From: Candidatus Electrothrix yaqonensis
Lineage (GTDB): Bacteria; Desulfobacterota; Desulfobulbia; Desulfobulbales; Desulfobulbaceae
Length of the DNA: 32,000 nt
Direction: 5' to 3'
Assembly: GCA_047651235.1 (NCBI GenBank)
Contig: CP178758.1
Location: forward strand, 2,340,001-2,372,000
A model generated the notes under the pieces. It did not search any database. It had not been told where the DNA came from and saw only the letters and a list, made by a program, of their open reading frames with translations. Shown here in pieces: positions 10,439-27,181 of the stretch. Each line of letters opens with the position of its first letter. Position 1 is the first letter of the stretch. Made by a program: the position numbers and the translations under genes.

Positions 10439-11194
10439 ATGTTCAAAGGGCTGCACGTTGGTGTTGTCATGCCGGCCTACAACGCCGAAAAAACACTCAT
10501 TCAAACCTATGAAGAAATCATAGCCCAGGAAATTGTTGATACCATCATTCTGGTGGATGACAGCAGTTCCGATAACACGGTGGACGTGGCAAAGAAGCTG
10601 GACCGGGTTACAGTCCTTGAACATTCCAGGAATATGGGATACGGGGCCAACCAGAAGACCTGCTATAAAGCTGCGCTTGACGCAGGCGCAGATATTGTCA
10701 TTATGGTCCACCCGGATTATCAGTATACTCCCAAGCTGATTCCCGCAATGACCGCCCTTATCGGGAACGGGCTTTTTTCCTGCGTACTGGGTTCACGAAT
10801 TCTGGGAGGCAATGCCGTGTGTGACGGTATGCCGCTCTATAAATATATTGCCAACCGCCTGCTGACTTTTACGGAAAATATCCTGATCGGGGCCAAACTG
10901 TCCGAATACCATACAGGATACAGAGCCTTTTCCAGAAAACTACTTGAACAGCTTGATCTGTCTGTCAATTCTGATGATTTTGTCTTTGACAATCAGATGC
11001 TCCTGCAGATTATCTGGGCCGGGGAAAGTATCGGCGAGGTGAGCTGTCCGACTAAATATTTTGCAGAGGCATCATCCATTAATTTCGTTCGGTCTGTGCG
11101 TTATGGACTGGGCTGTCTGGCAGCAGCTGTTCAGTTCCGCCTTGCAAGAATGCACCTGATACGCTCCCCTCTCTTTACCCACAGATCAGAATAA
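10439..11194 (+). CDS. Family 2 glycosyltransferase (polyprenyl-phosphate sugar synthase-like)
   Basis: VVMPAYNAEKTL, ILVDDSSSDNT, GYGANQKTCY and MVHPDYQYTP form the GT2 / Dpm1-ArnC-GtrB-like signature. There are no C-terminal TM segments. Confidence 0.85.
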   Translation: MFKGLHVGVVMPAYNAEKTLIQTYEEIIAQEIVDTIILVDDSSSDNTVDVAKKLDRVTVLEHSRNMGYGANQKTCYKAALDAGADIVIMVHPDYQYTPKLIPAMTALIGNGLFSCVLGSRILGGNAVCDGMPLYKYIANRLLTFTENILIGAKLSEYHTGYRAFSRKLLEQLDLSVNSDDFVFDNQMLLQIIWAGESIGEVSCPTKYFAEASSINFVRSVRYGLGCLAAAVQFRLARMHLIRSPLFTHRSE

Positions 11195-12615
11195 TGCCAG
11201 CATACAGCAGCCCCCGGGCAACCGAAAAAAATACGATAAAGACGGGCGACCGCTGTGACGCAGCGGAAGTACGGAAATGGTTAGCTGCCGGGTGTCTGCT
11301 CTTTATTGCAGCAAATATCCTGCGCAGTTGGGCCGCTGTGAGCAGTATAGGGTTTCATATGGAAGACAGTATGCTGTTTTCCAGGTATTACGGTAACGTG
11401 GTGCCGATTACCGACGTGGGCAGAACGCTTTTCGGGCAGCCCTACAAAATGCTGATAACCAACCTTACTGCATGGCTTTTTGCCCATTTTGATGTCAGGA
11501 TACAGCCGTATCTGTACTTAGGGACAGGTTTTCTCTGGGGAACTTGTGCGGCCTGCTGTTTTTTTGCCTCCGGACTGATCCGTTCCCGCACAGTTCTTCT
11601 TGTCGGGCCCCTGCTGATGGGTCTGGTGGGGCTGAACCACATCTATTATTATACGACCTTGGTCTTTATTATGTACACATGCCTGGCTGTTCTGCTGGCA
11701 TTGTTTTTTTATCCTGCACCAAAATCTGTTTTCAGTACGCTGCTGTTCATTATAGCATGTCTTTGCCTGCCCTGGGCCGGGCCGTATTCAGTCGTGGTGC
11801 TTCCTGCCTCCCTGCTTTTTCTTGTTCTGTTCCGGCATGAGCTGGACAGGAAAAAACAATGGCCCCTGGTCCTAGCTGCGGGTTCCTCCTTTATTTATTA
11901 CCTGAGTGTTCAGGGCGGAACAAGCAATATCATGGGCATAACAAATAAGAAAATTGTCACCGCCTATTTTGCTTCGCTGCTTGACCGGATAATTTTCTTT
12001 GACCTGTTCAAGAGTGTTTCTCCGTGGTATTGGCTCGTGTTTCTCGCTGTTGTCGGCGGCAGTTTCTTTCTCTTCCGTAAAGATGCTGTCTTTATAAAAC
12101 ATTCTCTTGTCATGCTGGCCATTATCTTCGGCTCCTATGCACTTTTTTATTTAAGCAGTAAATACCCTATGTATAATTTCCCGAAACCCTGTCATATTTT
12201 TCTTTCTTTATTTTTCTGGTGCATTTATCTGCTATATTTTGCCGATCATCTTTTTCAGGTTTATGGTGAAAAAAAACAGGCGGCTGTTCTGTTCTGCCTG
12301 CTTGTCTGTCTGCTTATTATTGTTGATAATAAAAATTTTCCGTATAAACGCAAGATAAGATACCCCCTCCCGGATACAGGTGCATTTATCGCCGCGATTC
12401 ATACTATGGAACAGCGGGGGTTTGAAGAGAAAAACCAGTATGTTATTCTTCGTCAATACAGCTTTCCGTATCGTCTTTTCCGTCCGTGGGTGCAGGTCGG
12501 CAGCAGGCGTCCGGATGCGCAGCAGCTTCTCCGCAGCGACCTGCCGCCTGCTCTGCAGAATGCTTTTGTCAGTTCAACCAAGGAAAGAAGACCGGAAGTC
12601 GAAAAAATCGATTGA
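11194..12615 (+). CDS. Polytopic membrane protein of unknown function (possible lipid-linked-sugar-utilising transferase)
   Basis: 473 aa with ten or more hydrophobic segments. Its ATG overlaps the TAA of the GT2 gene by 1 nt (taATG at 11192-11196), which implies translational coupling. I recognise no motif. Confidence 0.55.
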   Translation: MPAYSSPRATEKNTIKTGDRCDAAEVRKWLAAGCLLFIAANILRSWAAVSSIGFHMEDSMLFSRYYGNVVPITDVGRTLFGQPYKMLITNLTAWLFAHFDVRIQPYLYLGTGFLWGTCAACCFFASGLIRSRTVLLVGPLLMGLVGLNHIYYYTTLVFIMYTCLAVLLALFFYPAPKSVFSTLLFIIACLCLPWAGPYSVVVLPASLLFLVLFRHELDRKKQWPLVLAAGSSFIYYLSVQGGTSNIMGITNKKIVTAYFASLLDRIIFFDLFKSVSPWYWLVFLAVVGGSFFLFRKDAVFIKHSLVMLAIIFGSYALFYLSSKYPMYNFPKPCHIFLSLFFWCIYLLYFADHLFQVYGEKKQAAVLFCLLVCLLIIVDNKNFPYKRKIRYPLPDTGAFIAAIHTMEQRGFEEKNQYVILRQYSFPYRLFRPWVQVGSRRPDAQQLLRSDLPPALQNAFVSSTKERRPEVEKID

Positions 12616-12738
12616 ATTTTTTTCCCTCTTCAGCTCGTGAATTTTTTCCTGTATGACAACATGACTGCATCGATGTAACACACCTCATATTTATCCTGCA
12701 ATCCTACAGAATAAACAAAAAATACTTGGAGCATAACT

Positions 12739-13623
12739 ATGGAACAGGGGCTTGCCAAGGCCAAAGTGCTGATCGAATCGTTGCCGTACCTGCGTGAGTT
12801 CAGCGGCAAAACCGTTGTCATCAAGTACGGCGGTCATGCCATGGTGGATGAGGAGCTGAAAAAAAATTTCGCTCTGGATGTCATTCTGCTCAAATATATC
12901 GGGATCAATCCGGTGATTGTGCATGGCGGCGGCCCGCAGATCAACCGCTTTCTGGAGAAAATGCAGATCACCTCAAACTATATCCAGGGTATGCGGGTAA
13001 CAGACGGCCAGACCATGGATGTGGTGGAAATGGTCCTGGTGGGTAAGGTCAACAAGGAGATTGTCGGGTTGATTAATCATTGCGGCGGCCGGGCGGTGGG
13101 GCTTTCCGGCCGGGACGGTGATCTTGTCCAAGCGAAAAAGATGAAGATCCTCAGCAAACCGGAGGCCGAGAATGCCCCCCCGGAACTCATTGATCTGGGC
13201 CGGGTCGGGGAGGTCACCAAGGTCAACCCCGAAATCCTGGAAACTCTGGATGCAAAGGACTTTATCCCGGTCATCGCGCCGGTCGGGGTCGGCGAAGACG
13301 GACAGGCGTATAATATCAATGCTGATCTGGTTGCAGGTGCTGTGGCCGCCGAGCTTAATGCGGCCAAACTGATTCTGCTTACCGATGTAGAGGGCGTCAA
13401 AGACAGTCAGGGCAACCTGCTTTCTTCCATCAGCGAGGGAAACATTGAGCGGATGATTGAAGACGGGGTAATCAGCGGCGGGATGATCCCAAAACTGCGC
13501 TGCTGCGCCTCCGTCCTTGACGGAGGGGTAAACAAGGCCCATATCATTGACGGACGGCAGGAACACGCCATTCTGCTGGAGATTTTCACTCATCAGGGCA
13601 TCGGTACCGAGATAACTGCCTGA
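12739..13623 (+). CDS. argB: Acetylglutamate kinase
   Basis: [38 protein letters not shown] and GGMIPK are canonical ArgB blocks. Confidence 0.93.
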
Positions 13624-13826
13624 ATCCGCTCCAGTCCGATAAGACACGCGCTGTCAAAATAATGGATGGTTTCATCCGTCAATCTCCTGCTGCAGCTCTT
13701 CAGCATTGTAATTGCAGACCGGAACCTGATAGTGCCCCAGCACATCAATAATTGTCTTTTCGCAGGAGACGTTCTTGCACATTCTGTTCCTGTTCAATAT
13801 TTCTATCAATTTTCTGTCAACCGATT

Positions 13827-15143
13827 ATGCCCTCTTTCGGGAGCAATCACTCGTCTCATATCGAACGGTCCGTCGATCACATCTGCCTCTGTCCGGGCTG
13901 CGACCTGCTGCTGGAAAAGGCCAGGGCCACCTCCGAGCATACTGTGGTCTGTCCCCGCTGCTTGTACCGTCTTGACCGGAAGCGCCCGGATGCCATCCGG
14001 AGAACCTTGGTACTGTCGCTCACCGGGCTGCTGCTTTATCTGCCAGCAAATTTTTTTCCTCTGCTCAGCCTGAATATTCTCGGTGCGGAGATAACAAGCT
14101 CGCTGTTCCGCAGCACCTTAAGCCTGTTTGAGCAGGGAGAGTATCTGGTCGGTATTCTTGTGGTGCTGACCGGGTTTATCTGTCCGCTCATGATCCTCTC
14201 GCTTCTCTGCGCAGTTGCTGCCGGTCTGTTTTTCAACAGGAAAAGCAGGTGGATGTCCATCTTTCTGCACTGGTACCATCACCTGAATGAATGGGCAATG
14301 CCGGATATCTATCTCATTGCTGTCTTTATCACCATTATAAAAATACACTCTGCCGGAGCAATCGCCTTCAATGCAGGATTGTTCTGTTTCATCGGCTTGG
14401 TGATAACAACAGTAGCGGCGCAGGCATCTGCTAATGAACCCTTATTCTGGAGCAGACTGGAACGACAGGATGAACAGGAGAACCAGATACTTGCCATTGA
14501 CCCGGCAGCACGGACCGGTAAAGAGGCGCGGCTGCTGCTCTGTCCCACCTGCCATAAAGTTATCCAGTCGGAGGTTGCTGCCGGAAACAGAAACCCTGCC
14601 TGTCCCCGCTGCGGCGAACCGCTGCATCTGCGCAGGCGGAACAGCGTTGACCGGGCCTGGGCCCTGATCGTCAGCGCAGTCCTCTTTACTCTGCCAGCCA
14701 ACCTGCTCCCCATCATGTCGGTCTCCTCGTTCGGCAACCGCGCGGAAAGCACCATCATTGACGGCATCATTCATTTTTTCCAGGAAGGCTCCTACGGTAT
14801 CGGAGCCGTTATCCTCACCGCCTCTGTTCTGGTGCCTCTGTTCAAGATATTCGGCATGAGCCTGATCCTGATTTCCATCCACTTTCAACGGACAAGATGG
14901 CTCCGGCATAAGGCGATGATGTTCCGTTTTATCGCCTTTGTCGGGCGCTGGTCCATGCTGGATATCTTTGTCATCGCCCTGCTCTGTTCTCTGGTGCGGT
15001 TCGGCAGCCTGTCCTCGGTTGATGCGGCTCCGGCAGCCCTGTACTTCAGTGCTGTTGTCCTCAGCACCATGTTTGCGGCCATCAGCTTTGATACCCGGCT
15101 GCTCTGGGACAGCGCTGAAGAAGAGGCTTCGGAAAGCAGTTGA
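13827..15143 (+). CDS. pqiA: Paraquat-inducible protein A family membrane protein (two PqiA repeats)
   Basis: Two repeats are present. Each starts with a CxxC...CPRC zinc-ribbon-like motif (CPGCDLL..CPRC and CPTCHKV..CPRCG). Each is followed by LLLYLPANFFPLL or LFTLPANLLPIM and TM segments with W(A/S)M.DI(Y/F). The start is chosen at ATG 13827 and the ORF-track start is 13752. Confidence 0.85.
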   Translation: MPSFGSNHSSHIERSVDHICLCPGCDLLLEKARATSEHTVVCPRCLYRLDRKRPDAIRRTLVLSLTGLLLYLPANFFPLLSLNILGAEITSSLFRSTLSLFEQGEYLVGILVVLTGFICPLMILSLLCAVAAGLFFNRKSRWMSIFLHWYHHLNEWAMPDIYLIAVFITIIKIHSAGAIAFNAGLFCFIGLVITTVAAQASANEPLFWSRLERQDEQENQILAIDPAARTGKEARLLLCPTCHKVIQSEVAAGNRNPACPRCGEPLHLRRRNSVDRAWALIVSAVLFTLPANLLPIMSVSSFGNRAESTIIDGIIHFFQEGSYGIGAVILTASVLVPLFKIFGMSLILISIHFQRTRWLRHKAMMFRFIAFVGRWSMLDIFVIALLCSLVRFGSLSSVDAAPAALYFSAVVLSTMFAAISFDTRLLWDSAEEEASESS

Positions 15144-15159
15144 AAACTGTTGAAAGCGG

Positions 15160-15501
15160 TTAATTCGGCCGTTCTTCCGTGGTCCCCAGCACCTTGGCGA
15201 TAATTTCCCGTTTCATCGTGGCATGGGGTTCCGGGGCCTTCCAGATGATAAACTGCTCCAACACACGCATGTAATCACCGTTATCCTGTCTGCACTGCTC
15301 ACAGACAGAGCTTGCCTGATCACGGTACATGATGATTTTGCTGGCCGGTTCACCGGCAGAGTTGACAGCCGCCATTTTACGGCAGCCGCAGTTCAGCCGG
15401 ATCACGGCAACGCCCACGGCATCCGGGCTGCCTTCCAGGATTCCTTCAACCATTGCCTGTTCGCCCTGTTCCGGGCTGCGTATTTTTTTTTCTGCACTCA
15501 T
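15160..15501 (-). CDS. Hypothetical small protein with CxC...CxxC cysteines
   Basis: 113-aa ORF convergent with pqiA, with a 16-bp gap. It contains LNCGCRK and SSVCEQCRQ. I recognise no family. The coding call rests on ORF length and the absence of any competing gene. Confidence 0.45.
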   Translation of the reverse strand: MSAEKKIRSPEQGEQAMVEGILEGSPDAVGVAVIRLNCGCRKMAAVNSAGEPASKIIMYRDQASSVCEQCRQDNGDYMRVLEQFIIWKAPEPHATMKREIIAKVLGTTEERPN

Positions 15502-15654
15502 CGATAAAAAAAGCGGAATAAATTCAGCGGACCCGATATAGGCCGCAGTGTTTTGAACGATGCTGTTTCTGAGGGTTACTCGGTTATTTTCCGGAAAAAA
15601 ATGGCTTCCAGCAGATGGCCCCGGCTCCCCTCCGGTCAGGAAAGGAAGAAAAAC

Positions 15655-15789
15655 ATGCCCGGTATTCGCATAATCCGTTTACCGGAAAAGATTATTGAGG
15701 TTAAATACAATCCGACTGGCGATCATAATCGAAATCATCTGATTGAACAAGTTCCGCAGGCCCATCTCCCGGAGAGAATTATCCCATAA
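15655..15789 (+). CDS. Possible small ORF (44 aa) immediately upstream of the ArnT-like gene
   Basis: MPGIRIIRLPEKIIEVKYNPTGDHNRNHLIEQVPQAHLPERIIP. An AGGAAG sequence lies upstream. Its stop is 2 nt before the next ATG. No homology evidence is available. Confidence 0.25.
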   Translation: MPGIRIIRLPEKIIEVKYNPTGDHNRNHLIEQVPQAHLPERIIP

Positions 15790-15791
15790 CC

Positions 15792-17357
15792 ATGATGCAC
15801 TGCTGCCGGACAAAAGAACCAGGCGAGGAAGCAAACGCTATCTCACCAGCCTGGCTGATCATCGCTCTCGGCCTTGCCGTGCGTCTGCTGATCAGCGACC
15901 GGTTTCTGCTGGCCCCGGACGAGGCCCATTACTGGCAATGGAGCCGATACCCTGATATCGGCTATTATGATCATCCGCCCATGATTGCTTGGTGTATTTG
16001 GTTGACAACCCATGTTTTCGGGCACACGGAATTTGCCGTCCGCCTGCCCACGATTCTGGGGAATACAATCACCTCGGTCTATCTCTGTCTGCTGGCAGCC
16101 CGCTGGTTCTCCCGGCAGACCATCCTGCAGGTTGCTCTGCTCAGTCAGGGGGTTCTGCTGCTCAACGGCGCCGCCTTGATCGCCACCCCGGACGGCCTGC
16201 TGCTTCCCTGCTGGGCAGGGGCCTGTTATCATGCGGCCGTTGCCCTTGAACGCGATACCCTGCGGCAGTGGCTGCTCACCGGCATCTGGTTCGGTCTGGG
16301 CCTGCTCTCCAAATATACAATGCTGCTTTTTCTGCCCTCCCTGTTTTTCTGTATGCTCTTTACCGGGGCGTACCGGCAGCGGCTGTTGACCGTAAAGCCG
16401 TGGTCAGGGCTGCTCACCGGTCTGGTCCTTTTTACCCCGGTGGTGCTCTGGAATGCGCGGAACAACTGGGTCACCTTCCGGCATGTCCTTTTTCAGGGCG
16501 GAGTGGACAATGCCGCTCTGATCACTCCGGCATATCTGGGTGAGTTTTTCGGCACCCAGGCCGCTCTGCTTTCACCGCTCATCTTTCTGTTTATCCTTGT
16601 TGCCTGGTTCCGAGGCCGGGCTGGTCAACGGATAGCGCAAGAACAAGCCGCCTTTCTGATCTGGATGTCCCTGACCGGCTTTGCTGTTTTTGCCCTGCTC
16701 TCCCTGCACGTCCGGATTTACGGGAACTGGCCTGCTCCGGCCTACCTGACGGCACTCATCCTGACCGCAGCCCTGTACAGTCCGGGCCGGGCCGGAACTC
16801 CTGCCTCCAGATATCGGTTATGGAATATCGGCATCGGGCTGGCCTTTCTGCTTTCCATCCTTGTGACAGCACAGCTGCTGTATCCGGTGCTGCCGCTCAG
16901 GGCTGATCTCGACCGGACAGCCCAAGAAACCAAGGGCTGGGACACACTGGCCCGGATTCTGGACAACGAGCTGCAGCAGATGGAACGGCCGGATAAGACC
17001 TTCATCTTCGGTCTCCGCTATCAGTTTGCCGGGGAACTGGCCTTTTACATGCAGGGGCAGCCGCGCACAGTGTCCATCAACCGCTGGTCACGACCGAATG
17101 TCTATGATTTCTGGTTTGAGGATGCTATATTGATCGGCAAGGATGCAGTCGGTGTTTTTGAACATAAACCGGTGATTACCGTGCTGCCGGAAGTCTTTGA
17201 GCGGGTGGACCCGGTCAGGGAAATTACGCTCCGGCGGACAACGCCCTGGTTCGGCGAAGAAACAGTGCATACCCTGTACATGGCCCGCTGCTACGGCTTC
17301 AAAGGCGGTCTGAGATGGCTGCCCAAGGACCCTGACGACGTCCGGGCAATACGATAA
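15792..17357 (+). CDS. ArnT/PMT-like (GT39/GT83) dolichyl/undecaprenyl-phosphate-sugar-dependent glycosyltransferase
   Basis: LAPDEAHYWQWSRYPDIGYYDHPPMIAW...FGHTEFAVRLP and GLGLLSKYTMLLF are typical of the PMT_2/ArnT family. The N-terminal half is polytopic and the C-terminal domain is soluble. Confidence 0.85.
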   Translation: MMHCCRTKEPGEEANAISPAWLIIALGLAVRLLISDRFLLAPDEAHYWQWSRYPDIGYYDHPPMIAWCIWLTTHVFGHTEFAVRLPTILGNTITSVYLCLLAARWFSRQTILQVALLSQGVLLLNGAALIATPDGLLLPCWAGACYHAAVALERDTLRQWLLTGIWFGLGLLSKYTMLLFLPSLFFCMLFTGAYRQRLLTVKPWSGLLTGLVLFTPVVLWNARNNWVTFRHVLFQGGVDNAALITPAYLGEFFGTQAALLSPLIFLFILVAWFRGRAGQRIAQEQAAFLIWMSLTGFAVFALLSLHVRIYGNWPAPAYLTALILTAALYSPGRAGTPASRYRLWNIGIGLAFLLSILVTAQLLYPVLPLRADLDRTAQETKGWDTLARILDNELQQMERPDKTFIFGLRYQFAGELAFYMQGQPRTVSINRWSRPNVYDFWFEDAILIGKDAVGVFEHKPVITVLPEVFERVDPVREITLRRTTPWFGEETVHTLYMARCYGFKGGLRWLPKDPDDVRAIR

Positions 17358-17387
17358 CAACAACAGCCCCTTCGGGCGAGAACATAT

Positions 17388-18200
17388 ATGACATTCTTGC
17401 AGGCAATCATCCTCGGCATTGTCCAGGGATTGACGGAGTTTATTCCGGTATCCAGCTCCGGCCATCTGGTACTGGTGCCTCATTTCCTCGGCTGGCATTT
17501 TTCCAAAGAACAGGGGTTTATTTTTGATGTTCTGGTCCAGTGGGGCACTTTGTTTTCCGTATTTATCTATTTCCGGAAAGACCTGACAGCAATTACCACT
17601 GCATTTTTTCAGGGCATTCTCCGCTGCACTCCATTTGCCGAACAGGATGCGCGCCTCGGATGGTATCTGATCCTGGCAACCCTGCCGACCGTATTTTTTG
17701 GTCTGCTGGGCAAGGACCTTATTCAATATGCCTTTGCCAGTGCTGAGATGACCGGGTACTTTCTTTTTCTGACTGCCGTGCTGCTGGTGATTGCCGAGAC
17801 CGCAGGCCGACGCGACCGGAACATGGCCCAGGTCACCCGGCTCGACAGCCTCTGGATCGGCTTTTCTCAGGTGCTTGCCCTGCTGCCCGGTGTGTCCCGT
17901 TCAGGCGCCACAATCGCAGGCGGCATGACCCGGCATCTGGACCGGTCTGCTGCCGCCCGTTTTTCCTTCCTGATGTCCGTGCCGGTCATGCTGGGGGCGG
18001 GTGTGCTTGCCATTAAAGACTTGGTCGCACTGCCTGCGGCAGATGACTTTTTCCTGCCTCTGCTGGCCGGTTTTCTGGCTGCTCTGGTGTCCGGCTACAT
18101 CGCCATCCGCTGGCTGATCGCCTATCTGAACAGACACTCGCTCTACCTTTTTGCGGTATACTGTACGCTGCTTGGCCTGATAACGATTCTTTCCGTGTAA
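17388..18200 (+). CDS. uppP: Undecaprenyl-diphosphate phosphatase
   Basis: GIVQGLTEFIPVSSSGHL and PGVSRSGATIAGG are the two BacA/UppP signature motifs. 270 aa with about 8 TM segments. Confidence 0.93.
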   Translation: MTFLQAIILGIVQGLTEFIPVSSSGHLVLVPHFLGWHFSKEQGFIFDVLVQWGTLFSVFIYFRKDLTAITTAFFQGILRCTPFAEQDARLGWYLILATLPTVFFGLLGKDLIQYAFASAEMTGYFLFLTAVLLVIAETAGRRDRNMAQVTRLDSLWIGFSQVLALLPGVSRSGATIAGGMTRHLDRSAAARFSFLMSVPVMLGAGVLAIKDLVALPAADDFFLPLLAGFLAALVSGYIAIRWLIAYLNRHSLYLFAVYCTLLGLITILSV

Positions 18201-18495
18201 CGATTATCCCCTTCCCGGTCCGACCGGATCCCGCCATCTTTTCTTCTTCCCTCCTCCCTGACTGTCTGGAGAAAAAACAACAAGTCTGCAAGATTACCCT
18301 TGACTTTTCAGATTCAGTATGTTTGCCTTTTTGTCAAAAAATAATTCGGCAAACCTTATTACGAACTATCAAGATGATGATATCTCAGCAGTAAAAAATA
18401 GTGGATTCGCCTGTTATCGGCAACCTGTATTAACCGCCAATAACCAATAACGTTTACTGCATCCGAATTGTTAGAGTGGTTAGAGGAACCAGGTC

Positions 18496-21003
18496 ATGAC
18501 AGTCAGCTTTGGTGTTTTCTTTGGAATTGTAGTTATAGCTATGCTGGCCAAGCCGGTTTTTTTGCTGATTTTTGGACCGATTATTGTGTATATCGGGGAA
18601 AAACAGCCTGCCAAACCGAATATCGGACCTCATGACCTGAACACGTTTCCCCAGGATATTCAGGACTATTTTCTCCAGAATATACCTGCCCTTGAGCAGC
18701 AGAGATTCAAGGGCATCTGCTGTTGTATTTCAGAGCCGGATACCCCGATGATGCTGCATTTCTGTCTGTTGAAACATGCCGACAAACAGGATGTAGCCAT
18801 GATCGTAGTCGGTCAGAATGACATCCGCTGTACAGAGTTTGGCTCCGAGTTCAACGGGCTGGATATCAGCACGAACAACAACCTTCAGCATCCCTTCGTT
18901 TTTCCTGAACGACAGGACGCAAAGAAATATTCTTTTCCAAACATTTCGGATCCCGGCGAACTGTATACCATTCATCGGCTCCTGCTCCGGCGAGATGCAC
19001 AAGATGCAGCTCCGAAGACTGTGGCTGATGGAGCAGAACTGGATGAGGTTAAAAAGGGAATAATCCGCGAAATGGAAAGAAATGTGGTGGATGGATATCA
19101 TCGTTTTGATACTGCTTCCGATGCATATCGCCCTACGGTCAAAGGGGCCATTCTTATGACATGGAAAATGATCTGGCCTTTAGAAAATATTCTACGGGCG
19201 AGACATACACGCAAAATGGAGCGTGTGCTCCGGGAAGTCATGAAGGACAGGGAAAGCCTGTCGGCTGAACCTGCGGTCGCCCTTCAGACAAACCAAAATG
19301 CTGAACATGATGAAAGTCAACAGGAATCATATAAGATTGTTTTTGAAGGAGCAATTCGGGAGGACCGGAATCCTGCTCAGGTCAAGCGGCTTCTTGCCAA
19401 ATTGGCCCGGACAGACGACGCTGCTGTAGAGCGGCTTTTTACCCCGTCGACAAAAAAAATTCTGAAGCACAACCTGACTAAACAGGAGGCATTGAACTAT
19501 AAAAGAAAGTTTGAAACAACAGGTGCATGCTGCAAAATTTTTCGTGAGCGCTCTGTGTCTTCTCCGTCGTCAGCCGCTTCCCCTTCCACTGCACAGCAGC
19601 CTCATCCGAACGAACCCACCGGAGCATCATCTCAGCACAATGAATCATCCGCCTGTCCCCGTCTCACGAAAAAGGAGCGGGCCAGTGGGTTATTTCCGGA
19701 TATCGCGGAAAGATTCCGTCGCGGACCAATTAAAAACGCTGTCAGGCTGCCTCCTTTGGGTGTATGTTTTATATTTCTTCCTATATTCATCATCTTTACA
19801 CTGGGTGCTGTGCTGGTCGGACTTAAAACAGGGATGATATTTTTTCAGACGAAAAAGTTAGAGTATTTCGGTGCGCAGACTCAGGGCACTGTGATGAATA
19901 GAGAAGTTTCTCAAGGGAATTCATCTGTTGAAGGAAAAGACGATGTCCAGTACTACTATGTAGCCTATCAATTTCAGGCATCAATACCGGGGCGGAAAGA
20001 ACAAGTATTTTCAAGAGAGGAACAGGTCACCAAAGAGTTATATGACCAGCTCAAACCTGATACCAAAGTACCGGTCGTTTATAATCAGAAGGCCACAGTT
20101 GCAAGAATCAAGGGCAATTATCTGATACTTTCGTTTCCAGATGGAGAGGCACTGCCGCTTTTCTCCTCGCGAGGAATGGGAGCAATGTTCGTGTTACTTG
20201 CCATTACCCTCTTCGGCGGATTTGCGGTTATCGGGCTTTTGCTTTGGCTTGTCAGCGACCTTATCGCCCTTGTTTTTCTGTCCTCTACTGGACGGATGGT
20301 CACAGCAAAGGTTATTGAACTGGAAAAATATAAAGGATCAGACTCGACTGAGTACTCGAACGAGTACGCGATGATCTGCCAGTTTCAACCTGAAGAACAA
20401 GGTGCCGTGCCCATTATAGGACGACAAAAAATTTCCAGAGATATCTATACTGCCTATCGTCAGAAAAACACTGTAGATGTTCGCTATGTCCCAAAGAAAC
20501 CAAAGTGGTTTAAGATCGTAGTTAATCCTGATACAAAATCCGCAACGAATCGTGGCGGAAAATCATCTTATCTTCCAATCTCTATAAAGTTATGGGCGTT
20601 TACACAATATTCCGGCGTCGCGGTGCCAGCCTGTATTATCGGGAGTATTCTGGTGGGCGTGCAATTATACAATATGTACCAGAGAGAGCCTGTTAATTTT
20701 TCTGCCGCAGCTTTTGGAGCTTTTGTAGTTATTCTCAGTTCAGCGGCCTTTTTACGGAAGAACCTCCTGCAACGACGCATACAGGAACTGGAAGAGCATG
20801 GCAGAACTGCCTGTGCGGAAGTTATAGATATTGAAGAAGATGGAGATCTTTACGTAATGGTGTATCAGTTTGATGGCGGTTCCCGATCAATTACTGCCAG
20901 GGAAACGCGAGACGAACCTTGGGGGAAAGAAGTCGGCGATTCGGTGCCTGTCCGTTATCTCGAAAACAATCCCACAGTTTTTGACCAAATCTTTGAAGAG
21001 TAA
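18496..21003 (+). CDS. 835-aa membrane protein with three tandem DUF3592-like modules and an unassigned N-terminal region
   Basis: The N-terminal TM is followed by an unknown domain (aa 40-270). A beta-alpha-alpha-beta-alpha-beta-like segment resembling the L7/L12 C-terminal fold follows (aa 279-349, nt 19330-19542). A Ser/Pro-rich linker comes next. Three TM-flanked modules follow with the DUF3592 pattern G.V....(E)......Y...Y.F...G: QGTVMNREV..YYYVAYQF, GRMVTAKVIELE..YAMICQF and GRTACAEVIDIE..YVMVYQF. Confidence 0.7.
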   Translation: MTVSFGVFFGIVVIAMLAKPVFLLIFGPIIVYIGEKQPAKPNIGPHDLNTFPQDIQDYFLQNIPALEQQRFKGICCCISEPDTPMMLHFCLLKHADKQDVAMIVVGQNDIRCTEFGSEFNGLDISTNNNLQHPFVFPERQDAKKYSFPNISDPGELYTIHRLLLRRDAQDAAPKTVADGAELDEVKKGIIREMERNVVDGYHRFDTASDAYRPTVKGAILMTWKMIWPLENILRARHTRKMERVLREVMKDRESLSAEPAVALQTNQNAEHDESQQESYKIVFEGAIREDRNPAQVKRLLAKLARTDDAAVERLFTPSTKKILKHNLTKQEALNYKRKFETTGACCKIFRERSVSSPSSAASPSTAQQPHPNEPTGASSQHNESSACPRLTKKERASGLFPDIAERFRRGPIKNAVRLPPLGVCFIFLPIFIIFTLGAVLVGLKTGMIFFQTKKLEYFGAQTQGTVMNREVSQGNSSVEGKDDVQYYYVAYQFQASIPGRKEQVFSREEQVTKELYDQLKPDTKVPVVYNQKATVARIKGNYLILSFPDGEALPLFSSRGMGAMFVLLAITLFGGFAVIGLLLWLVSDLIALVFLSSTGRMVTAKVIELEKYKGSDSTEYSNEYAMICQFQPEEQGAVPIIGRQKISRDIYTAYRQKNTVDVRYVPKKPKWFKIVVNPDTKSATNRGGKSSYLPISIKLWAFTQYSGVAVPACIIGSILVGVQLYNMYQREPVNFSAAAFGAFVVILSSAAFLRKNLLQRRIQELEEHGRTACAEVIDIEEDGDLYVMVYQFDGGSRSITARETRDEPWGKEVGDSVPVRYLENNPTVFDQIFEE

Positions 21004-22310
21004 TGCTTATGCAAACCAAAAAAACATTCTTCCTGTATGCAGCTCACCTCTTCCTGGCCTGCACACTCATCAGCCTCCTGGGCTGCACACCCGAAACAGA
21101 TCCAGACAAGCAGCTGATCACGGTCTGGGCGCACAGCGGTCAGGAGGGCGAACGCAAGGTGCTCATGGATCAGGTGCAACGTTTTAACGAAGAATTTCCT
21201 GATGTCCACGTTGAACTCACCCTGCTGCCAGAAGGTTCGTACAACTCCCAGCTCCAGTCCGCCGCCCTTTCCCACGACCTGCCCGATGTGATCGAGTTTG
21301 ACGGGCCGTTTCTGTACGGCTATGTCTGGCAGAATCAGCTTCAGCCCCTGGACGACCTCCTGCCTGCGGCAGTGCAGGCCGATCTCCTGCCCTCCATCAT
21401 CAAGCAGGGCACCATGCACGATCATCTTTTTGCTGTGGGCATGTTTGACTCCGGTCTGGGCATGTACGGCAATAAGGCTTTGCTGGAGGCGGCGGGCATC
21501 CGCATTCCCTTTTCAGTGAATGATGCCTGGACAGCGGAAGAGTTCAAGCAGGTGCTGAACAAGCTGGCTGCCCAGGACCAAGGCGGAGCTGTGCTGGATC
21601 TCAAGGCCAATTACCGGGGCGAGTGGTTCACCTATGCCTTTTCCCCGATTATTCAATCTGCTGGCGGTGATCTGATCGACCGGCAGGATTATCTGTACGC
21701 AGAATCGGTGCTGGCCGGGAATGAGGCGGTTGGTGCCATGACCACCCTGCGGGATTGGTTTCAGCAGGGCTATGTTGATCCGAACCTGGATGATGCCGCC
21801 TTTGTCGAGGAGCGGGTCGCGCTTTCTTGGGTCGGACATTGGGAATATCCCCGCTATGCAAAGGCCCTGGGCGACAAGCTGGTCCTCCTGCCTCTGCCGG
21901 ATTTCGGGCAGGGCTCAAAGACAGGTCAGGGTTCCTGGCAATGGGGAATCAACGCGGATGCCCCCCATCCCGAGACGGCAGCGCAGTTTCTCGCCTTCCT
22001 GCTCCGCCCGGAAAATATCCTCGCCATGACCGGGGTCAACGGTGCCGTGCCTGCCACCAAGACCGCCGTTGCCCGCTCGCCCTTGTACAGGGAAGGAGGC
22101 CCGCTCCGGCTTTTTGTGGACCAGCTCCGTCAAAGCAGCGTGGAGCGACCGCGCACCCCGGCCTATCAGGTGATCACCTCGGTCTTTCAGCAGGCCTTTG
22201 ATGAAATCCGCAACGGTGCTGATGTGCAGAAGGCCCTGCATCAGGCTGCCGCAGCCATTGAGCAGGATATTACCGACAGCGAAGGCTACCGTTCCGTTCC
22301 CCGTTCCTGA
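21003..22310 (+). CDS. ABC transporter substrate-binding lipoprotein (family 1, sugar/glycerol-phosphate type)
   Basis: Lipobox LISLLGC. ITVWAHSGQEGE..., YNSQLQSAAL..DLPDVIEFDGP, WQWGINA and the overall length fit the extracellular solute-binding family 1. The ATG overlaps the upstream TAA by 1 nt, and an alternative ATG lies at 21009. Confidence 0.85.
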   Translation: MLMQTKKTFFLYAAHLFLACTLISLLGCTPETDPDKQLITVWAHSGQEGERKVLMDQVQRFNEEFPDVHVELTLLPEGSYNSQLQSAALSHDLPDVIEFDGPFLYGYVWQNQLQPLDDLLPAAVQADLLPSIIKQGTMHDHLFAVGMFDSGLGMYGNKALLEAAGIRIPFSVNDAWTAEEFKQVLNKLAAQDQGGAVLDLKANYRGEWFTYAFSPIIQSAGGDLIDRQDYLYAESVLAGNEAVGAMTTLRDWFQQGYVDPNLDDAAFVEERVALSWVGHWEYPRYAKALGDKLVLLPLPDFGQGSKTGQGSWQWGINADAPHPETAAQFLAFLLRPENILAMTGVNGAVPATKTAVARSPLYREGGPLRLFVDQLRQSSVERPRTPAYQVITSVFQQAFDEIRNGADVQKALHQAAAAIEQDITDSEGYRSVPRS

Positions 22311-22344: not shown

Positions 22345-23238
22345 ATGAACACGTTGCACAACGACAACCGGGTCGGCTGGCTCATGGTTGCCCCGGCCCT
22401 TACCGGTCTGGCCCTTTTTATCGGCCTGCCTTTTCTTCTGGCCCTGATCCTTTCTTTTACCAATCTGAAGCTGGCCTCGCCCCTGCCGTTGACCTTTGTC
22501 GGCCTGCAGCATTATGCCCGTATTCTTCAAGACCCTGTCTTTCTTCGGGCACTGCTCAATAACCTAATCTTTGCCGTGGTCGTGGTGCCAGCCCAGACCG
22601 GCTGCGCCCTCCTGCTTGCCTTGCTGGTGAACCGCAAACTGCCCGGCATGGTGGTCTTCCGCACCCTGTTCTTCCTGCCGGTGATCTTCCCCTTTGCCCT
22701 GATCTCCGTGGTCTGGATGCTCCTCTACGCGCCCGGTCCCAACGGGGTCATCAACTCTGTGCTTGAGGTCCTGACCTTCGGATTCTGGGAGCCGCAGGAT
22801 TTCCTCCATAACCAATTCCTTGCCCTGCCCGCGATCATGGTGGTCTCGATCTGGCAGGGAGCCGGGTTTCAGATGATCGTCTATCTCGCCGGACTCCAGG
22901 ATATTTCAGAAGAACTCTACGAGGCAGCCCGGCTGGATGGGGCCAATTCCTGGCAGCAGTTCTGGCATGTCACCTTCCCCTGCCTGCGCAACACCACCCT
23001 GTTCGTGGTCTCGGTAACCACCATCCTTTCGTTCCGGCTCTTTGATCAGGTCCAGATTATGACTAAAGGCGGCCCGCTCAATGCCACCGCCACTGTGGTC
23101 TTCGAGGCCGTGCGCTCGGCCTTTGAACGCCAACAGATCGCCCGTGGCTCGGCCATGACCGTGGTTTTTTTCATCATTGTCCTCGGCCTGACCTTTTTCC
23201 AGCGGCGGTTGGTGAGCGAGGATCGGAGGGTGGGATGA
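22345..23238 (+). CDS. ABC transporter permease (MalF/UgpA-type)
   Basis: Six TM segments are present. The EAA loop reads LQDISEELYEAARLDGANSWQQFWHVTFP, which is the binding-protein-dependent transport inner-membrane component signature. Confidence 0.9.
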   Translation: MNTLHNDNRVGWLMVAPALTGLALFIGLPFLLALILSFTNLKLASPLPLTFVGLQHYARILQDPVFLRALLNNLIFAVVVVPAQTGCALLLALLVNRKLPGMVVFRTLFFLPVIFPFALISVVWMLLYAPGPNGVINSVLEVLTFGFWEPQDFLHNQFLALPAIMVVSIWQGAGFQMIVYLAGLQDISEELYEAARLDGANSWQQFWHVTFPCLRNTTLFVVSVTTILSFRLFDQVQIMTKGGPLNATATVVFEAVRSAFERQQIARGSAMTVVFFIIVLGLTFFQRRLVSEDRRVG

Positions 23239-23288: not shown

Positions 23289-24500
23289 ATGAAGTCCCTC
23301 AGACAACTACTTGCAGCATCTATTCTGGCAACCCTACTGCTTGTATTGCTTTTACAGAGCGGTCAGACGGTAGCTGCGCAGAAATCTCCGCCCTTTTACT
23401 GGGACTTCATCAATGTCCTGATTGATGTGCAGCAGAACGGCGACATGCTTATCACCGAGACCCAGAAATACGTTTTCACCGGGCCGCACACCAATGAGCG
23501 ATACCGCTACATTCCGCTGGATAAAGTAGATGGCATTGATCAGATCGAGGTTTATGAGGGCGAAGAGAAGCTGGCCGAAGAGACAAATGTCAAAAACGGG
23601 CAGCGGTGGATCAAATGGCGTCATGATCTGAACCCGCCGGAGAGTCATACCTTTGTGCTCAAGTATCGTGTCAAAGGCGGTATCCAAGTTCACGGCGAAG
23701 AGGATTGGGTGTACGTCAAAGCGATTTTCAAAGACCGCTCCGCACCGATTGAAAGCGGCAAGGTAACGGTACGCCTGCCGGATTCGCTGGCCGGAAAGAT
23801 CACCAGCTTTAAAAATTTTGGAGTGCCTGCCGAACCTCGACAGATTGATGAACGGACGGTTGAATTCGTTGCAAAAGGCACTTTGCCACCGGGACAGGAA
23901 CTGGAGGTGAGGGTTGCTGTTCCGCATGGGATACTCGCCCTTGCGACTCCGGCAATATTGAAGGAGCAACCAAGGAAAAGTGCGGAGTATTGGCGGCAGC
24001 AGAAAAAAAAGTACGAACGGATTGCTAATTCTTCAAAGCCACCGAATCCGTTTATTTTCACCTCCATTAAAATAGGCATAATATCAGTATTTTCCTTGAT
24101 AGGAATATTAACTTTTTGGTGCTGGCTTCGTGACGGATTAGAAGAGGGTAAGAGCGTAAAACAACTTGTCAAAAATTTCATGATATTTATCGGATCCGTT
24201 GCCATTGTTATTGGTATGACATGGGCTGCCGAAGCTATGAAATCTATTACAATACCAGTTCATTTGAACGGCCTTTTATGGAGCATATTGCGCCTTCTGT
24301 TAGGTGCATTGAAAATAATTATGTCTTTCGCTGCCTTATTAATTATCCCAATTCTTTTAATATTGTTCAGCATAGGTGAAGGCGGAGGAAGTAGCAGCGG
24401 TGGTGGTTACTCTGGCAGCGGCTATGCTGGCGGAGGAGGCTTTGGAGGCGGTGGTTCCGGTGGAGGAGGAGGTGGTGCCTGCGGCGGTGGTGGCGGCTGA
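23289..24500 (+). CDS. DUF2207-like membrane protein with a Gly-rich, Cys-containing C-terminal tail
   Basis: After the signal peptide, the N-terminal domain reads FYWDFINVLIDVQQNGDMLITETQKYVFTGPHTNERYRYIPL...HTFVLKYRVKGGIQ...VTVRLP, as in DUF2207. TM segments follow. The 41-aa tail is GEGGGSSSGGGYSGSGYAGGGGFGGGGSGGGGGGACGGGGG (nt 24375-24497). Confidence 0.75.
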   Translation: MKSLRQLLAASILATLLLVLLLQSGQTVAAQKSPPFYWDFINVLIDVQQNGDMLITETQKYVFTGPHTNERYRYIPLDKVDGIDQIEVYEGEEKLAEETNVKNGQRWIKWRHDLNPPESHTFVLKYRVKGGIQVHGEEDWVYVKAIFKDRSAPIESGKVTVRLPDSLAGKITSFKNFGVPAEPRQIDERTVEFVAKGTLPPGQELEVRVAVPHGILALATPAILKEQPRKSAEYWRQQKKKYERIANSSKPPNPFIFTSIKIGIISVFSLIGILTFWCWLRDGLEEGKSVKQLVKNFMIFIGSVAIVIGMTWAAEAMKSITIPVHLNGLLWSILRLLLGALKIIMSFAALLIIPILLILFSIGEGGGSSSGGGYSGSGYAGGGGFGGGGSGGGGGGACGGGGG

Positions 24501-24557: not shown

Positions 24558-24905
24558 ATGCATAATGAGTTAGAAGATATCAAGAAGATAGAGAGACAAT
24601 TCATTCAATACAGTCAATACAAAAAAATAATCTCTCGGAAAAAAAAGGTAAAAAGAATTTTAACGATAGCGGCTGCTATAACTGCTGTGATATGGGGTAT
24701 GGTGCTGCTGTTTAAAACTATAGGCCCAGGACCACTATTCTTAATACTTCTGATAGGTGTTGTCGTCCTTTTCATAACCGGTAGTAGTGGAGGCGGGGGG
24801 AGTGGCAGCGGCTACACTGGCGGCTATGTCGGTGGTGGCGGAGGCTTCGGCGGCGGTGGTTCCGGTGGAGGGGGAGGCGGATGCTGCGGTGGTGGTGGTG
24901 GCTGA
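24558..24905 (+). CDS. Small two-TM protein carrying the same Gly/Cys-rich C-terminal tail
   Basis: 115 aa. The N-terminus is basic (KKIISRKKKVKR), followed by two TM segments. The tail is GSSGGGGSGSGYTGGYVGGGGGFGGGGSGGGGGGCCGGGGG (nt 24780-24902). It parallels the upstream gene's tail at both protein and DNA level. Confidence 0.6.
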   Translation: MHNELEDIKKIERQFIQYSQYKKIISRKKKVKRILTIAAAITAVIWGMVLLFKTIGPGPLFLILLIGVVVLFITGSSGGGGSGSGYTGGYVGGGGGFGGGGSGGGGGGCCGGGGG

Positions 24906-24944: not shown

Positions 24945-25235
24945 ATGAAGTGCCTCAGACAACTGCTTGCTGTGTATGTCCAGGCAATCGTACTTGGATT
25001 ATTTTTACTGAATACTCAAACAGCATCGGCGAAATCCCCGCCCTTTTACTGGGACTTCATCAATGTGCTGATTGATGTGCAGGGAAACGGCGACATGCTG
25101 GTCACCGAGACCCAGAAGTACGTCTTCACCGGGCCGCACACCAACGAACGTTACCGCTATATTCTGCTGGACAAGATAGAACATATTGATCATATTGAAT
25201 TTTTATAGGGAGAAAAAAAGCTGGCGTTTCAGACC
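24945..25235 (+). pseudogene. Decayed and truncated second copy of the DUF2207-like gene
   Basis: The first 87 codons closely parallel 23289-23550 (MKCLRQLL...SPPFYWDFINVLIDVQGNGDMLVTETQKYVFTGPHTNERYRYILLDK). A compensated +1/-1 indel creates an in-frame TAG at 25206-25208. Nucleotide similarity to copy 1 fades at about 25235. Confidence 0.75.
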
Positions 25236-25836: not shown

Positions 25837-26991
25837 GATCAGGGCTGTTCAATTCTAGAAAATCCCGGCGTAATCAAACAGACGATTTATATCCATACAG
25901 TTCCTGAAAAGCTCCCGGCTGACATTTTTCACCTTGTTCTTACGAAGAATATTGAGAGCAAAGCTTCTCAGTTTCGCAAATATGTGCGGATTGCAACGAA
26001 TTCGGGAGCGGTCTTCGCCCATAGAAACATCCCGAACATAATGATTTCCATTCTCGATCCGCCAATGCCCCAGGATTCCCTGACATATTTCTTCAGCGTC
26101 CGAACCGGCTGTTGAAACATAAAAGGATGTCTCATGAGTGTTTTTCCATTTTTTCTTCTTTGTATCAAACACCTGACGAAATCGATCGATTCTGATAAAA
26201 ACTTCCACTTTGCGACTCTCTATACGGTTTCGTTTTTTTTTCAAAAGGCTCCGTGAAAACATCATCAGGAACAGACGTATTCGCGATATTTTCACAGTCG
26301 TTCAGGAGAGTTTTCTGATTTTTTTTAACCTGAGCAATCACATCGTTTCCCGTTTCAGCGGCGGCCTGAAGAGTTTTTTTCTGACAATGAAGGGCGTCGA
26401 AGGTAAAAATGCGGTCGGATAAACCGAGTTCTTTCATCAGTTTCCGCGCCGCCGGGATTTCATTGCTTTTCTCCCTGATTTCTTCATGGCCGAGAACGAC
26501 GGCGCGGTCGCCAGCAAAAGCACTCAATATCTGAAGCTGATTAATATCCTTCATGTTATCGAGACTTCCCCGGAGAGTTTTGCCGTCGCAACGAATAAAT
26601 TCTCCGTCCGGTTCCTCTTCCGCGAGAGCTTTGCCGTGCTCCCTGAAAATCCGCTCAAGTTCCGAACCGGAAGTATTCAGAATGACAGTGCGGATCGTTG
26701 TATATGCAGGAGCTTTTTTCCAGTCCAGGCCGAAATATTCATTGAGCCTTTCACGATGCGCATCAACGAACAGATGGATTTTGCGATAAGAATCCGAACC
26801 GCTCAGGATCGCCATGATCGAAAACAGAAGAATATGCGTAAGCTCATATCGCCGGCCCTGCCCGCGTCGATGATCTTTGATTGTGTTCAGCAAAAAAACA
26901 GCATGCAGAATCCTCGTGTAAAGTTTTTCTGTATCAATTACTGCATACGTCTTGAAAATACAAGCTCTTATAGAATTGAACAGCCCTGATC
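25837..26991 (-). mobile_element. ISAs1-family-like insertion sequence (1155 bp) with perfect 21-bp terminal inverted repeats
   Basis: gatcagggctgttcaattcta at 25837-25857 is the exact reverse complement of tagaattgaacagccctgatc at 26971-26991. The interior encodes an ISAs1/H-repeat-type DDE transposase. No direct target-site duplication is visible at the flanks. Confidence 0.8.
25855..26991 (-). pseudogene. ISAs1-family transposase, frameshifted at a T9/A9 homopolymer
   Basis: The N-terminal frame reads LNTIKDHRRGQGRRYELTHILLFSIMAILSGSDSYRKI..CDGKTLRGS..FDALHCQKKT. The C-terminal frame reads KKKRNRIESRKVEVF...YVSTAGSDAEEICQGILGHWRIENGNHYVRDVSMGEDRSRIR..LRSFALNIL. The two frames join if the run at 26233-26241 is 8 nt rather than 9 nt. 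No in-frame ATG lies between the right IR and the conserved N-terminal block. Confidence 0.8.
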
Positions 26992-27181
26992 CCGCGACGG
27001 ACCCGGTCAGAATCACACCGCAACACGTCGCATATATACGGTCGCATATATACGTTATGCCGCCGTATCCGAACTTTTCCGCTTCAACTGCGGCGTATCG
27101 ACGGCGGTCTTTTTCAGACAGGCTGCCGTAAAAATTACGCATTCGCGTTTCTATCTCAGGAGAATATGTCTTTATCTTCAT
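26992..27181 (-). pseudogene. N-terminal remnant of an ISAzo13-like transposase, interrupted by the ISAs1-like element
   Basis: MKIKTYSPEIETRMRNFYGSLSEKDRRRYAAVEAEKFGYGGITYI resembles the N-terminus of ISAzo13-type transposases (..ERQRRL.AA.EA..LG.GG...). Removing one copy of the 14-bp duplication restores GGITYICDVLRCDSDRVRRG, an HTH-like continuation. Confidence 0.55.
27027..27054. repeat. Perfect 14-bp tandem duplication (gtcgcatatatacg x2) causing a frameshift in the ISAzo13-like remnant
   Basis: Read directly. Copy 1 is 27027-27040 and copy 2 is 27041-27054. Confidence 0.9.

Follow-up and report, generated by a model that had tools for sequence, protein, structure and literature searches.

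The stretch analyzed here, called the window, comprises 32,000 nucleotides of the Candidatus Electrothrix yaqonensis genome (contig CP178758.1, positions 2,340,001 to 2,372,000 of the forward strand), numbered below from its first letter. At positions 18496 to 21003 it carries a gene for an 835-amino-acid (835-aa) protein, referred to as the target. An earlier note on this DNA, made from the sequence alone, had described the product as a giant membrane protein with three DUF3592 units and a novel N-terminal region, translationally coupled to the binding protein of an ABC transporter. The open reading frame (ORF) has the same extent in the ORF list, and its product is a multi-pass inner-membrane protein fused from an N-terminal domain (N-domain), a module of ~75 aa, a linker, and three DUF3592 units. 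The features of the gene, with the evidence for each, are as follows.

18496 to 21003, plus strand: target ORF, 835 aa, TAA stop included; ORF list, orthologues, and the ratio of nonsynonymous to synonymous substitution rates (dN/dS).
18496 to 19263, plus strand: N-terminal transmembrane (TM) helix (aa 2-34) and an alpha/beta domain with interfacial and basic helices (aa 35-256); profile search and AlphaFold2 (AF2).
19327 to 19548, plus strand: ~75-aa module (aa 278-351); dN/dS, and its insertion in the protein P0106.
19549 to 19752, plus strand: Ser/Pro-rich disordered linker (aa 352-419); predicted local distance difference test score (pLDDT) of <50, and composition.
19756 to 20166, plus strand: DUF3592 unit 1, with a TM helix (aa 421-457) and a beta-barrel (aa 463-545); Pfam, hydropathy, and AF2.
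20167 to 20520, plus strand: DUF3592 unit 2, with a hydrophobic 41-residue helix (aa 558-598) and a beta-barrel (aa 600-675); Pfam, hydropathy, and AF2.
20602 to 21000, plus strand: DUF3592 unit 3, with helices at aa 703-728 and 735-768 and a beta-barrel (aa 770-821); Pfam and AF2.

A word-index protein search with the target returned only three relatives, each of cable-bacterial origin: a 751-aa NCBI product of Candidatus Electrothrix sp. YB6 with identical sequence, an 820-aa product encoded on a Logan contig (locus L001; 79 to 81% identity, with 84% identity at the nucleotide level), and a 684-aa product of Electrothrix sp. EH2 (locus L002; 70% identity). A scan of species-representative genomes added a Desulfobulbaceae metagenome-assembled genome (locus L008), and a metagenome scan that used the full-length alignment as its query found nothing. 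The gene is present in four independent Candidatus Electrothrix/Desulfobulbaceae assemblies and has been found so far almost only in cable bacteria.

Pairwise dN/dS over the whole gene was 0.21 against L001 and 0.31 against L002. The ratio was <0.5 in every domain, including DUF3592 unit 3, and reached ~1 or higher only in the short spacer at aa 257 to 277. The target could in principle be an artefact, either an assembly chimera or a decaying fusion without function. Two observations might be read in that way: unit 3 is absent from L002 and from a metagenomic homologue described below (P0005), and the NCBI product is shorter, at 751 aa. We regard this explanation as highly improbable. The same reading frame is uninterrupted in three independent assemblies, L001 and L008 among them, dN/dS is 0.15 to 0.40 across the domains, unit 3 among them, and the ribosome-binding site and the N terminus are conserved among the orthologues. 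Because the ORF recurs and dN/dS is low in all domains, the target is neither a chimera of separate genes, a possibility that the earlier note had raised, nor a decaying fusion. We conclude that it is a real gene under purifying selection.

The shorter NCBI product results from a different start, at M85. A Shine-Dalgarno-like sequence, AGAGGAA, can be read at positions 18482 to 18488, 7 nt ahead of the ATG at 18496. Residues 1 to 84 (18496 to 18747) are kept in the 820-aa and 684-aa orthologues and also in the alignment of the N-domain family; a start at M85 would cost the protein its N-terminal membrane helix and, in the conserved domain, the first strand and the first helix. Since these residues are conserved in the orthologues and in a family of 1,251 members, the M85 start is too short and the ATG at 18496 is supported. 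The public annotation is thereby corrected from 751 aa to 835 aa. A term search of the YB6 genome paper found nothing relevant to the target locus.

Synonymous divergence (dS) was strongly uneven along the gene. Against L001, it was only 0.17 in unit 3 and 0.5 to 0.8 elsewhere, with 0.79 in the N-domain; against L002, the N-domain gave 0.38 and unit 1 gave 1.6. Such unevenness indicates recombination among cable-bacterial lineages inside the gene.

Upstream of the DUF3592 units, ~230 aa had been described as novel and without a recognizable motif. They are not orphan sequence. An exhaustive profile search with aa 1 to 415 found 1,251 cluster representatives at E<1e-3 (clusters at 50% identity), of which 375 also passed E<1e-10. 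Nearly all of these are stand-alone proteins of ~250 aa that align to aa ~8 to 244, including the N-terminal hydrophobic helix, and membership of the target in the family extends over the full length, from the N-terminal TM helix through the C-terminal W/K-rich helix. In alignments with individual members of this unnamed family (P0004, P0153, and P0154; Pyrinomonadaceae), target residues ~5 to 245 are matched over the full length, with the motifs YVEF, TNN, LYxxH, and YRPTxKGAxLMTWKxxWP in common. Most members end after the basic helix, whereas the target continues into further domains. Scans of 60 family members and the fusion proteins against Pfam, NCBIfam, and PADLOC gave no model for the N-domain family.

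The earlier note had also suggested predicting the structure and searching with it by Foldseek. With an alignment of 60 sequences, AF2 folded the N-domain confidently (pLDDT, 94.6; predicted template modeling score, 0.88). In the model, a long N-terminal helix is joined to a sheet that is mainly antiparallel and flanked by helices; the W/K-rich helix that carries the YRPTxKGAxLMTWKxxWP motif and a basic C-terminal helix make up the rest. A Foldseek search of this model against the PDB gave no match below E=0.1. A sequence match to a methyl-accepting chemotaxis protein (8vl8/8fyv; E=0.024) was rejected because a helical-looking sensor region aligns there to the beta-sheet core of the N-domain; judged from the alignment text, the matched part looks like a helical four-helix-bundle sensor.

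Some members of the N-domain family are fusions. P0005, a 598-aa protein from an ENA metagenome contig (locus L009), consists of an N-domain and two DUF3592 units, with DUF3592 scoring 40 bits. It has these parts in the same order as the target, at 39% identity, but lacks the ~75-aa module, the Ser/Pro linker, and the third unit, and its next gene encodes a protein kinase and not a binding protein. Six further proteins (P0058, P0076, P0084, P0086, P0109, and P0151) combine the N-domain with a C-terminal DUF4253 domain that ends in LYCWWD, and one or three TM helices connect the two. Whether the partner is a pair of DUF3592 units, as in P0005, or DUF4253, an odd number of TM helices always lies between it and the N-domain. 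This hints at a modular trans-membrane arrangement in which both fusion types, to DUF3592 barrels and to DUF4253, join across the membrane. The neighborhoods of six stand-alone or variant N-domain genes had no common partner.

DUF3592 (PF12158) was the only significant Pfam family in the target, at 33 bits versus a gathering cut-off of 25.3. It was also the top match of each unit scanned singly, in every case below threshold (E=1e-3, 0.15, and 9e-3 for units 1 to 3). All 7 barrel segments taken from the window and its orthologues matched DUF3592 (best E=2.6e-8), and the segments are mutually in register, with a shared G..T...V / Y..Y.FQ / V.V.Y..P pattern (shuffle z-scores, 2.3, 3.3, and 6.3). 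A full-length AF2 model, with a mean pLDDT of 72 and values of 66 to 86 in the barrels, showed units of helix and beta-domain at aa 421 to 545, 558 to 675, and 703 to 821. The small beta-barrel with flanking TM helices is seen both by hydropathy and by AF2. In Foldseek searches against the PDB, the DUF3592 parts returned only small barrels and OB folds, the best being 3rd4, with a probability of 0.99 but an E value of 0.15. The three units that had been recognized by eye at 19747-20115, 20173-20523, and 20593-21000 are therefore borne out by the joint Pfam score, the per-unit top matches, the register, and the AF2 model. The Ser/Pro-rich linker ahead of them is likewise present and predicted to be disordered.

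DUF3592 proteins are typically single-unit proteins of about 150 to 240 aa. The unit that the target shares with the family (for instance, Rv0556/ML2271 of Mycobacterium) is a TM helix, a small beta-barrel, and a TM helix, and all three barrels of the target have DUF3592 as their best match and look like small OB barrels to Foldseek. The target differs in having three tandem units instead of one, in the last unit, which has two helices before its barrel and no closing TM helix after it, in the fused N-terminal region of ~410 aa, and in the sub-threshold Pfam scores of its single units. It is a DUF3592 member by the family's own criterion; what is unusual is the number of units and the long N-terminal extension. 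The two-unit form is ancestral, and the third unit was added in the lineage of the window.

Between the N-domain and the linker, a segment of ~70 aa had been likened to the C-terminal fold of ribosomal protein L7/L12. This likeness is unproven. The Pfam model PF00542 scored 14.2 bits against the module (cut-off, 25.9; E=0.056), which is below threshold, and matched with model positions 37 to 66 alone. An hhalign comparison with approximate sequences of the L12 C-terminal domain gave a probability of 58% over 29 columns. The local likeness covers aa ~320 to 348, a strand-helix-strand stretch of some 30 residues ending in "...TGA-C-K-I," and the first half is unmatched. With low confidence (pLDDT, 58 to 66, from a very shallow alignment of 5 sequences), AF2 drew the module as helices only, in place of the beta-alpha-alpha-beta-alpha-beta fold of L7/L12 with its three-stranded sheet and three helices, and a Foldseek search of the full model against the PDB returned no L12 structure.

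A homologue search with the ~75-aa module as the query found nothing. The same module, which in the target has the pattern "YKIVF...KTGA-C," was recognized within the N-domain of P0106, a protein of the multicellular magnetotactic bacterium Candidatus Magnetomoraceae gMMP-15 (locus L013, 6001 to 6966), where it is inserted between the YxEF strand and the TNN strand. The dN/dS of the module, at 0.09 to 0.20, is the lowest of the target gene. Its different placement in P0106 and its low dN/dS argue that it is an autonomous and strongly constrained module.

The membrane helices of the target lie at aa 2-34, 421-457, 558-598, 703-728, and 735-768. Averaged over 60 family members, the first helix (TM1) is preceded by a tail of 5 aa with 0.1 Lys or Arg (K/R), and the 15 aa after it contain 2.15 K/R; in the target, 5 K/R precede the second helix (TM2). 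The bias around TM1 favors an N-out/C-in orientation, so that the N-domain, the small module, and the linker would be cytoplasmic. With one helix following the cytoplasmic linker, barrel 1 would be periplasmic. This agrees with the detection of the DUF3592 protein Rv0556 by surface immuno-electron microscopy (PMC2891697), and AlphaFold3 puts the barrel of Rv0556/ML2271 in the periplasm, touching LpqW and MptB (bioRxiv 10.64898/2026.07.15.738315). Two helices separate barrels 2 and 3, which would therefore lie on the same side as each other.

The neighboring features that bear on the origin of the gene are listed here.

15792 to 17357, plus strand: PMT_2, a GT-C-type glycosyltransferase; Pfam.
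17388 to 18200, plus strand: BacA/UppP, undecaprenyl-pyrophosphate phosphatase; Pfam.
18300 to 18326, plus strand: conserved box TTGACTTTT-N11-TGTTTGC, starting with a -35-like TTGACT; shared with loci L010, L011, and L012.
18321 to 18354, no strand assigned: 7-bp inverted repeat gtttgcc/ggcaaac; at chance level.
18480 to 18495, plus strand: left edge of the cassette; nucleotide homology to L001, L002, and L008 starts at 18480.
21001 to 21011, plus strand: junction TAAtgcttATG, with the target stop at 21001 to 21003, an ATG at 21003 overlapping the stop, and the conserved ATG at 21009; sequence.
21003 to 22310, plus strand: sugar-type ABC substrate-binding lipoprotein with the lipobox LLGC; SBP_bac_8 and SBP_bac_1 matches.
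22345 to 23238, plus strand: single ABC permease gene; Pfam.

The earlier note had taken the overlap of stop and start in TAATG (21001 to 21005) as a sign of coupling between the target and the transporter. The overlap is there; the junction reads gaagagTAAtgcttATG and is identical in L001. Three metagenome loci, L010, L011, and L012, encode binding proteins 85 to 90% identical to that of the window. The homology of L010 and L011 to the window starts exactly at the ATG at 21009 (MQTKK...). The binding protein therefore more likely begins at this conserved ATG; the ATG within TAATG is specific to this junction. With the start at 21009, the gap from stop to start is 5 nt, and GAAGAG precedes that start by 8 nt. 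The junction between the two genes gave no match to a terminator or promoter consensus, either of which would have spoken for their separation.

These facts raise the possibility that the target serves the sugar ABC importer as a dedicated accessory subunit in the membrane and that the coupling reflects a stoichiometric functional partnership. The two genes share a strand, their stop and start either overlap or are 5 nt apart, the identical junction is found in L001, at 84% nucleotide identity, and no terminator consensus parts the genes. LpqW has a binding-protein fold. A precedent is the DUF3592 barrel predicted to touch this periplasmic lipoprotein (bioRxiv 10.64898/2026.07.15.738315). However, the association is not conserved. 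It occurs in the window and in L001, but none of the three loci with closely similar binding proteins has a DUF3592 gene upstream; instead, the binding protein follows a PAS-adenylate cyclase, a GmrSD-type gene, or noncoding sequence. Conversely, the two-unit orthologues of EH2 (L002) and P0005 (L009) have nothing beyond unit 2, and the genes downstream of them are unrelated, with no binding protein beside them, so that conserved co-occurrence with CUT1-type binding-protein and permease genes was not found. The jump in G+C content at third codon positions (GC3) at the junction is sharp, and the transporter locus of the window is itself incomplete, with one permease and no second, and has an insertion sequence (IS) element nearby. 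We consider a role as importer subunit quite improbable. Of the coupling that had been proposed, the overlap stands, but the partnership is not conserved.

The spacer ahead of the target suggests how the junction could have arisen. In L010, L011, and L012, the box lies 84 to 97 nt upstream of the binding-protein ATG. In the window, it occurs once, where 0.01 occurrences are expected by chance, and it lies 196 nt upstream of the ATG of the target. It is promoter-like or operator-like and is the native control element of the binding-protein operon. Two specific readings of the box were rejected: as a sigma-70 promoter, a 17-nt spacing gives a poor -10 element, TTGCCT, and scanning the region between BacA and the target for a promoter consensus gave none; as a sigma-54 promoter, the GG/GC spacing is unfit and L011 has no GG, by our own reading of the sequence.

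In L001, L002, and L008, the gene upstream of the target belongs to the formate/nitrite-transporter family and is only 27 nt away; no remnant of such a gene was found in the spacer of the window. Both the change in GC3 at the junction and the displacement of the operon box point to a lineage-specific cassette insertion. The simplest reading of the sequence is that the native control box and the first codon of the binding-protein operon are now separated by a low-GC3 cassette, 18480 to 21008. The link to the transporter is lineage specific and not a conserved partnership; on this reading, it is the product of a recent insertion into the operon leader. The target is an accessory, recombining cassette that is the first gene of the binding-protein operon in the lineage of the window.

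Base composition agrees with this picture. The earlier note had found the gene AT-richer than its neighbors; its hand count of 25/60 G+C at 19801 to 19860 was exact, and GC3 confirms the difference. The target has a GC content of 0.46 and a GC3 of 0.45, versus a GC3 of 0.64 to 0.76 in BacA, PMT_2, the binding protein (0.69), and the permease. GC3 across the window is bimodal. One class, at 0.41 to 0.53, contains the target, a GT2 gene at 10439, a 473-aa ORF at 11194, DUF2207, a small ORF, and the transposase; the other, at 0.61 to 0.76, contains the amino-acid kinase, PqiA, PMT_2, BacA, the binding protein, the permease, VWA, and HlyD. A few ORFs (TetR, 6571-8547, and 9371-10342) lie in between, at 0.56 to 0.57. 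The bimodality suggests that the window is a mosaic of core and accessory DNA.

The genes upstream of the spacer invite a different assignment, in which the target is a cofactor of envelope glycan synthesis acting with PMT_2 and BacA, much as ML2271 is proposed to act with MptB. The same-strand run from 10439 to 18200 consists of GT2, the 473-aa unknown, the amino-acid kinase, PqiA, PMT_2, and BacA/UppP, and the P0106 gene comes directly after a gene for a giant, 1,343-aa multi-glycosyltransferase. In addition, ML2271/Rv0556 is predicted to be an essential cofactor of MptB (bioRxiv 10.64898/2026.07.15.738315). We nevertheless think this assignment unlikely, since the adjacency is specific to the window (the formate/nitrite-transporter family gene takes that place in L008, L001, and L002), the 295-bp spacer with the box of the binding-protein operon parts BacA from the target, and the GC3 of the target differs from that of the upstream genes.

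The target could also be a membrane protein of a conflict system, of the immunity or effector type, encoded by an accessory gene that moves between loci and has no tie to a housekeeping pathway. The target shares its low GC3 with the transposase and other accessory genes of the window, its flanks vary among close relatives, its dS is mosaic, and related loci contain an IS element and a GmrSD-type gene. DUF3592 genes are known from LXG toxin loci of Streptococcus suis (PMC12482557). Against this, PADLOC gave no match for the target, P0005, P0004, P0058, P0059, or P0106, and no toxin-like neighbor was seen in any locus examined. A conflict role is, in our view, doubtful.

The explanation that best accounts for these observations together is that the target is a real cable-bacterial fusion gene that entered the leader of an ABC operon as a cassette and encodes a membrane-spanning adaptor. 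We assign this joint reading a probability of about 0.5. Since the cassette lies between the box and the start of the binding protein, its transcription would most likely come from the promoter of the binding-protein operon. Translation in tandem with the binding protein is probable because stop and start overlap or are 5 nt apart. The N-terminal helix would insert N-out, so that the N-domain and the ~75-aa module would lie in the cytoplasm beside the membrane surface, and the DUF3592 barrels would face the periplasm. Tentatively, and by analogy with the predictions for Rv0556/ML2271 with MptB and LpqW, the protein may serve as a membrane-spanning adaptor or scaffold, with lipoproteins, membrane enzymes, or other envelope partners docking on its barrels; it would not be a dedicated subunit of the transporter.

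Several points weigh against this explanation. AF2 draws aa 558 to 598 as one 41-residue helix, which could be a hairpin or a single pass; in the latter case, barrel 1 would be on one side of the membrane and barrels 2 and 3 on the other. The segments between the helices and barrels 2 and 3 are rich in K/R and, taken alone, suggest placement in the cytoplasm. The box departs from the canonical sigma-70 promoter, and the consensus scan of the spacer yielded no promoter. No conserved gene neighborhood points to a function, and the contexts of stand-alone N-domain genes are mutually unrelated. Finally, Rv0556 is a protein with one unit from another phylum, and the analogy with it draws on predictions.

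A bolder version of the adaptor reading would treat the N-domain as a new, widespread, membrane-anchored cytoplasmic module, with a fold unseen in solved structures, that is wired to outward-facing DUF3592 or DUF4253 domains; in cable bacteria, the co-expressed binding protein and other periplasmic lipoproteins would dock on the three-barrel form, by analogy with Rv0556, LpqW, and MptB. We see this as a long shot. If true, it would link events in the shared periplasm of these organisms to the cytoplasm.

If the adaptor-cassette reading holds, the N-domain defines a sizeable uncatalogued family (about 1,250 clusters) that has a confidently predicted fold, has no solved relative in sequence or Foldseek searches of the PDB, and is worth a Pfam entry, and the fusion ties this family to DUF3592 and gives a natural handle on the latter. 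Published leads on DUF3592 are only the predicted role as MptB cofactor (bioRxiv 10.64898/2026.07.15.738315) and the LXG toxin loci (PMC12482557). The reading would also mean that a tight stop/start junction can come from the recent insertion of a cassette into an operon leader, and it cautions that function should not be inferred from translational coupling alone. The finding opens no long-standing question and has no current bearing on any open one.

Minor features of the locus complete its description. The spacer upstream of the target, of 295 bp and with a 7-bp inverted repeat, had been called regulatory-looking. The size of the spacer and the coordinates of the repeat are exact, but the repeat is at chance level, being present in 32% of shuffled spacers; its first arm falls within the conserved box, and the second arm is unconserved in L010, L011, and L012. 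An Rfam scan of the window found no RNA family. A 16-nt direct repeat, TCGGCAAACCTTATTA / TCGGCAACCTGTATTA, occurs at 18346 to 18361 and 18417 to 18432, where the spacer sequence, downstream of the box and ahead of the ATG of the target, is specific to the window; it may be due to chance.

Downstream, the gene order in L010 (6004 to 10139) is binding protein, permease, DUF2207, and second permease. The window has the first permease and DUF2207 between 22345 and 27181, without the second permease; DUF2207 is followed there by a small ORF with a Gly-rich tail (24558 to 24905), a truncated DUF2207 copy (24945 to 25208), and a DDE transposase on the minus strand (26165 to 27181). The DUF2207 protein and the small protein, of 115 aa, share nearly the same Gly-rich tail, ...GGGGFGGGGSGGGGGG(A/C)CGGGGG, encoded at 24380 to 24500 and 24780 to 24905.

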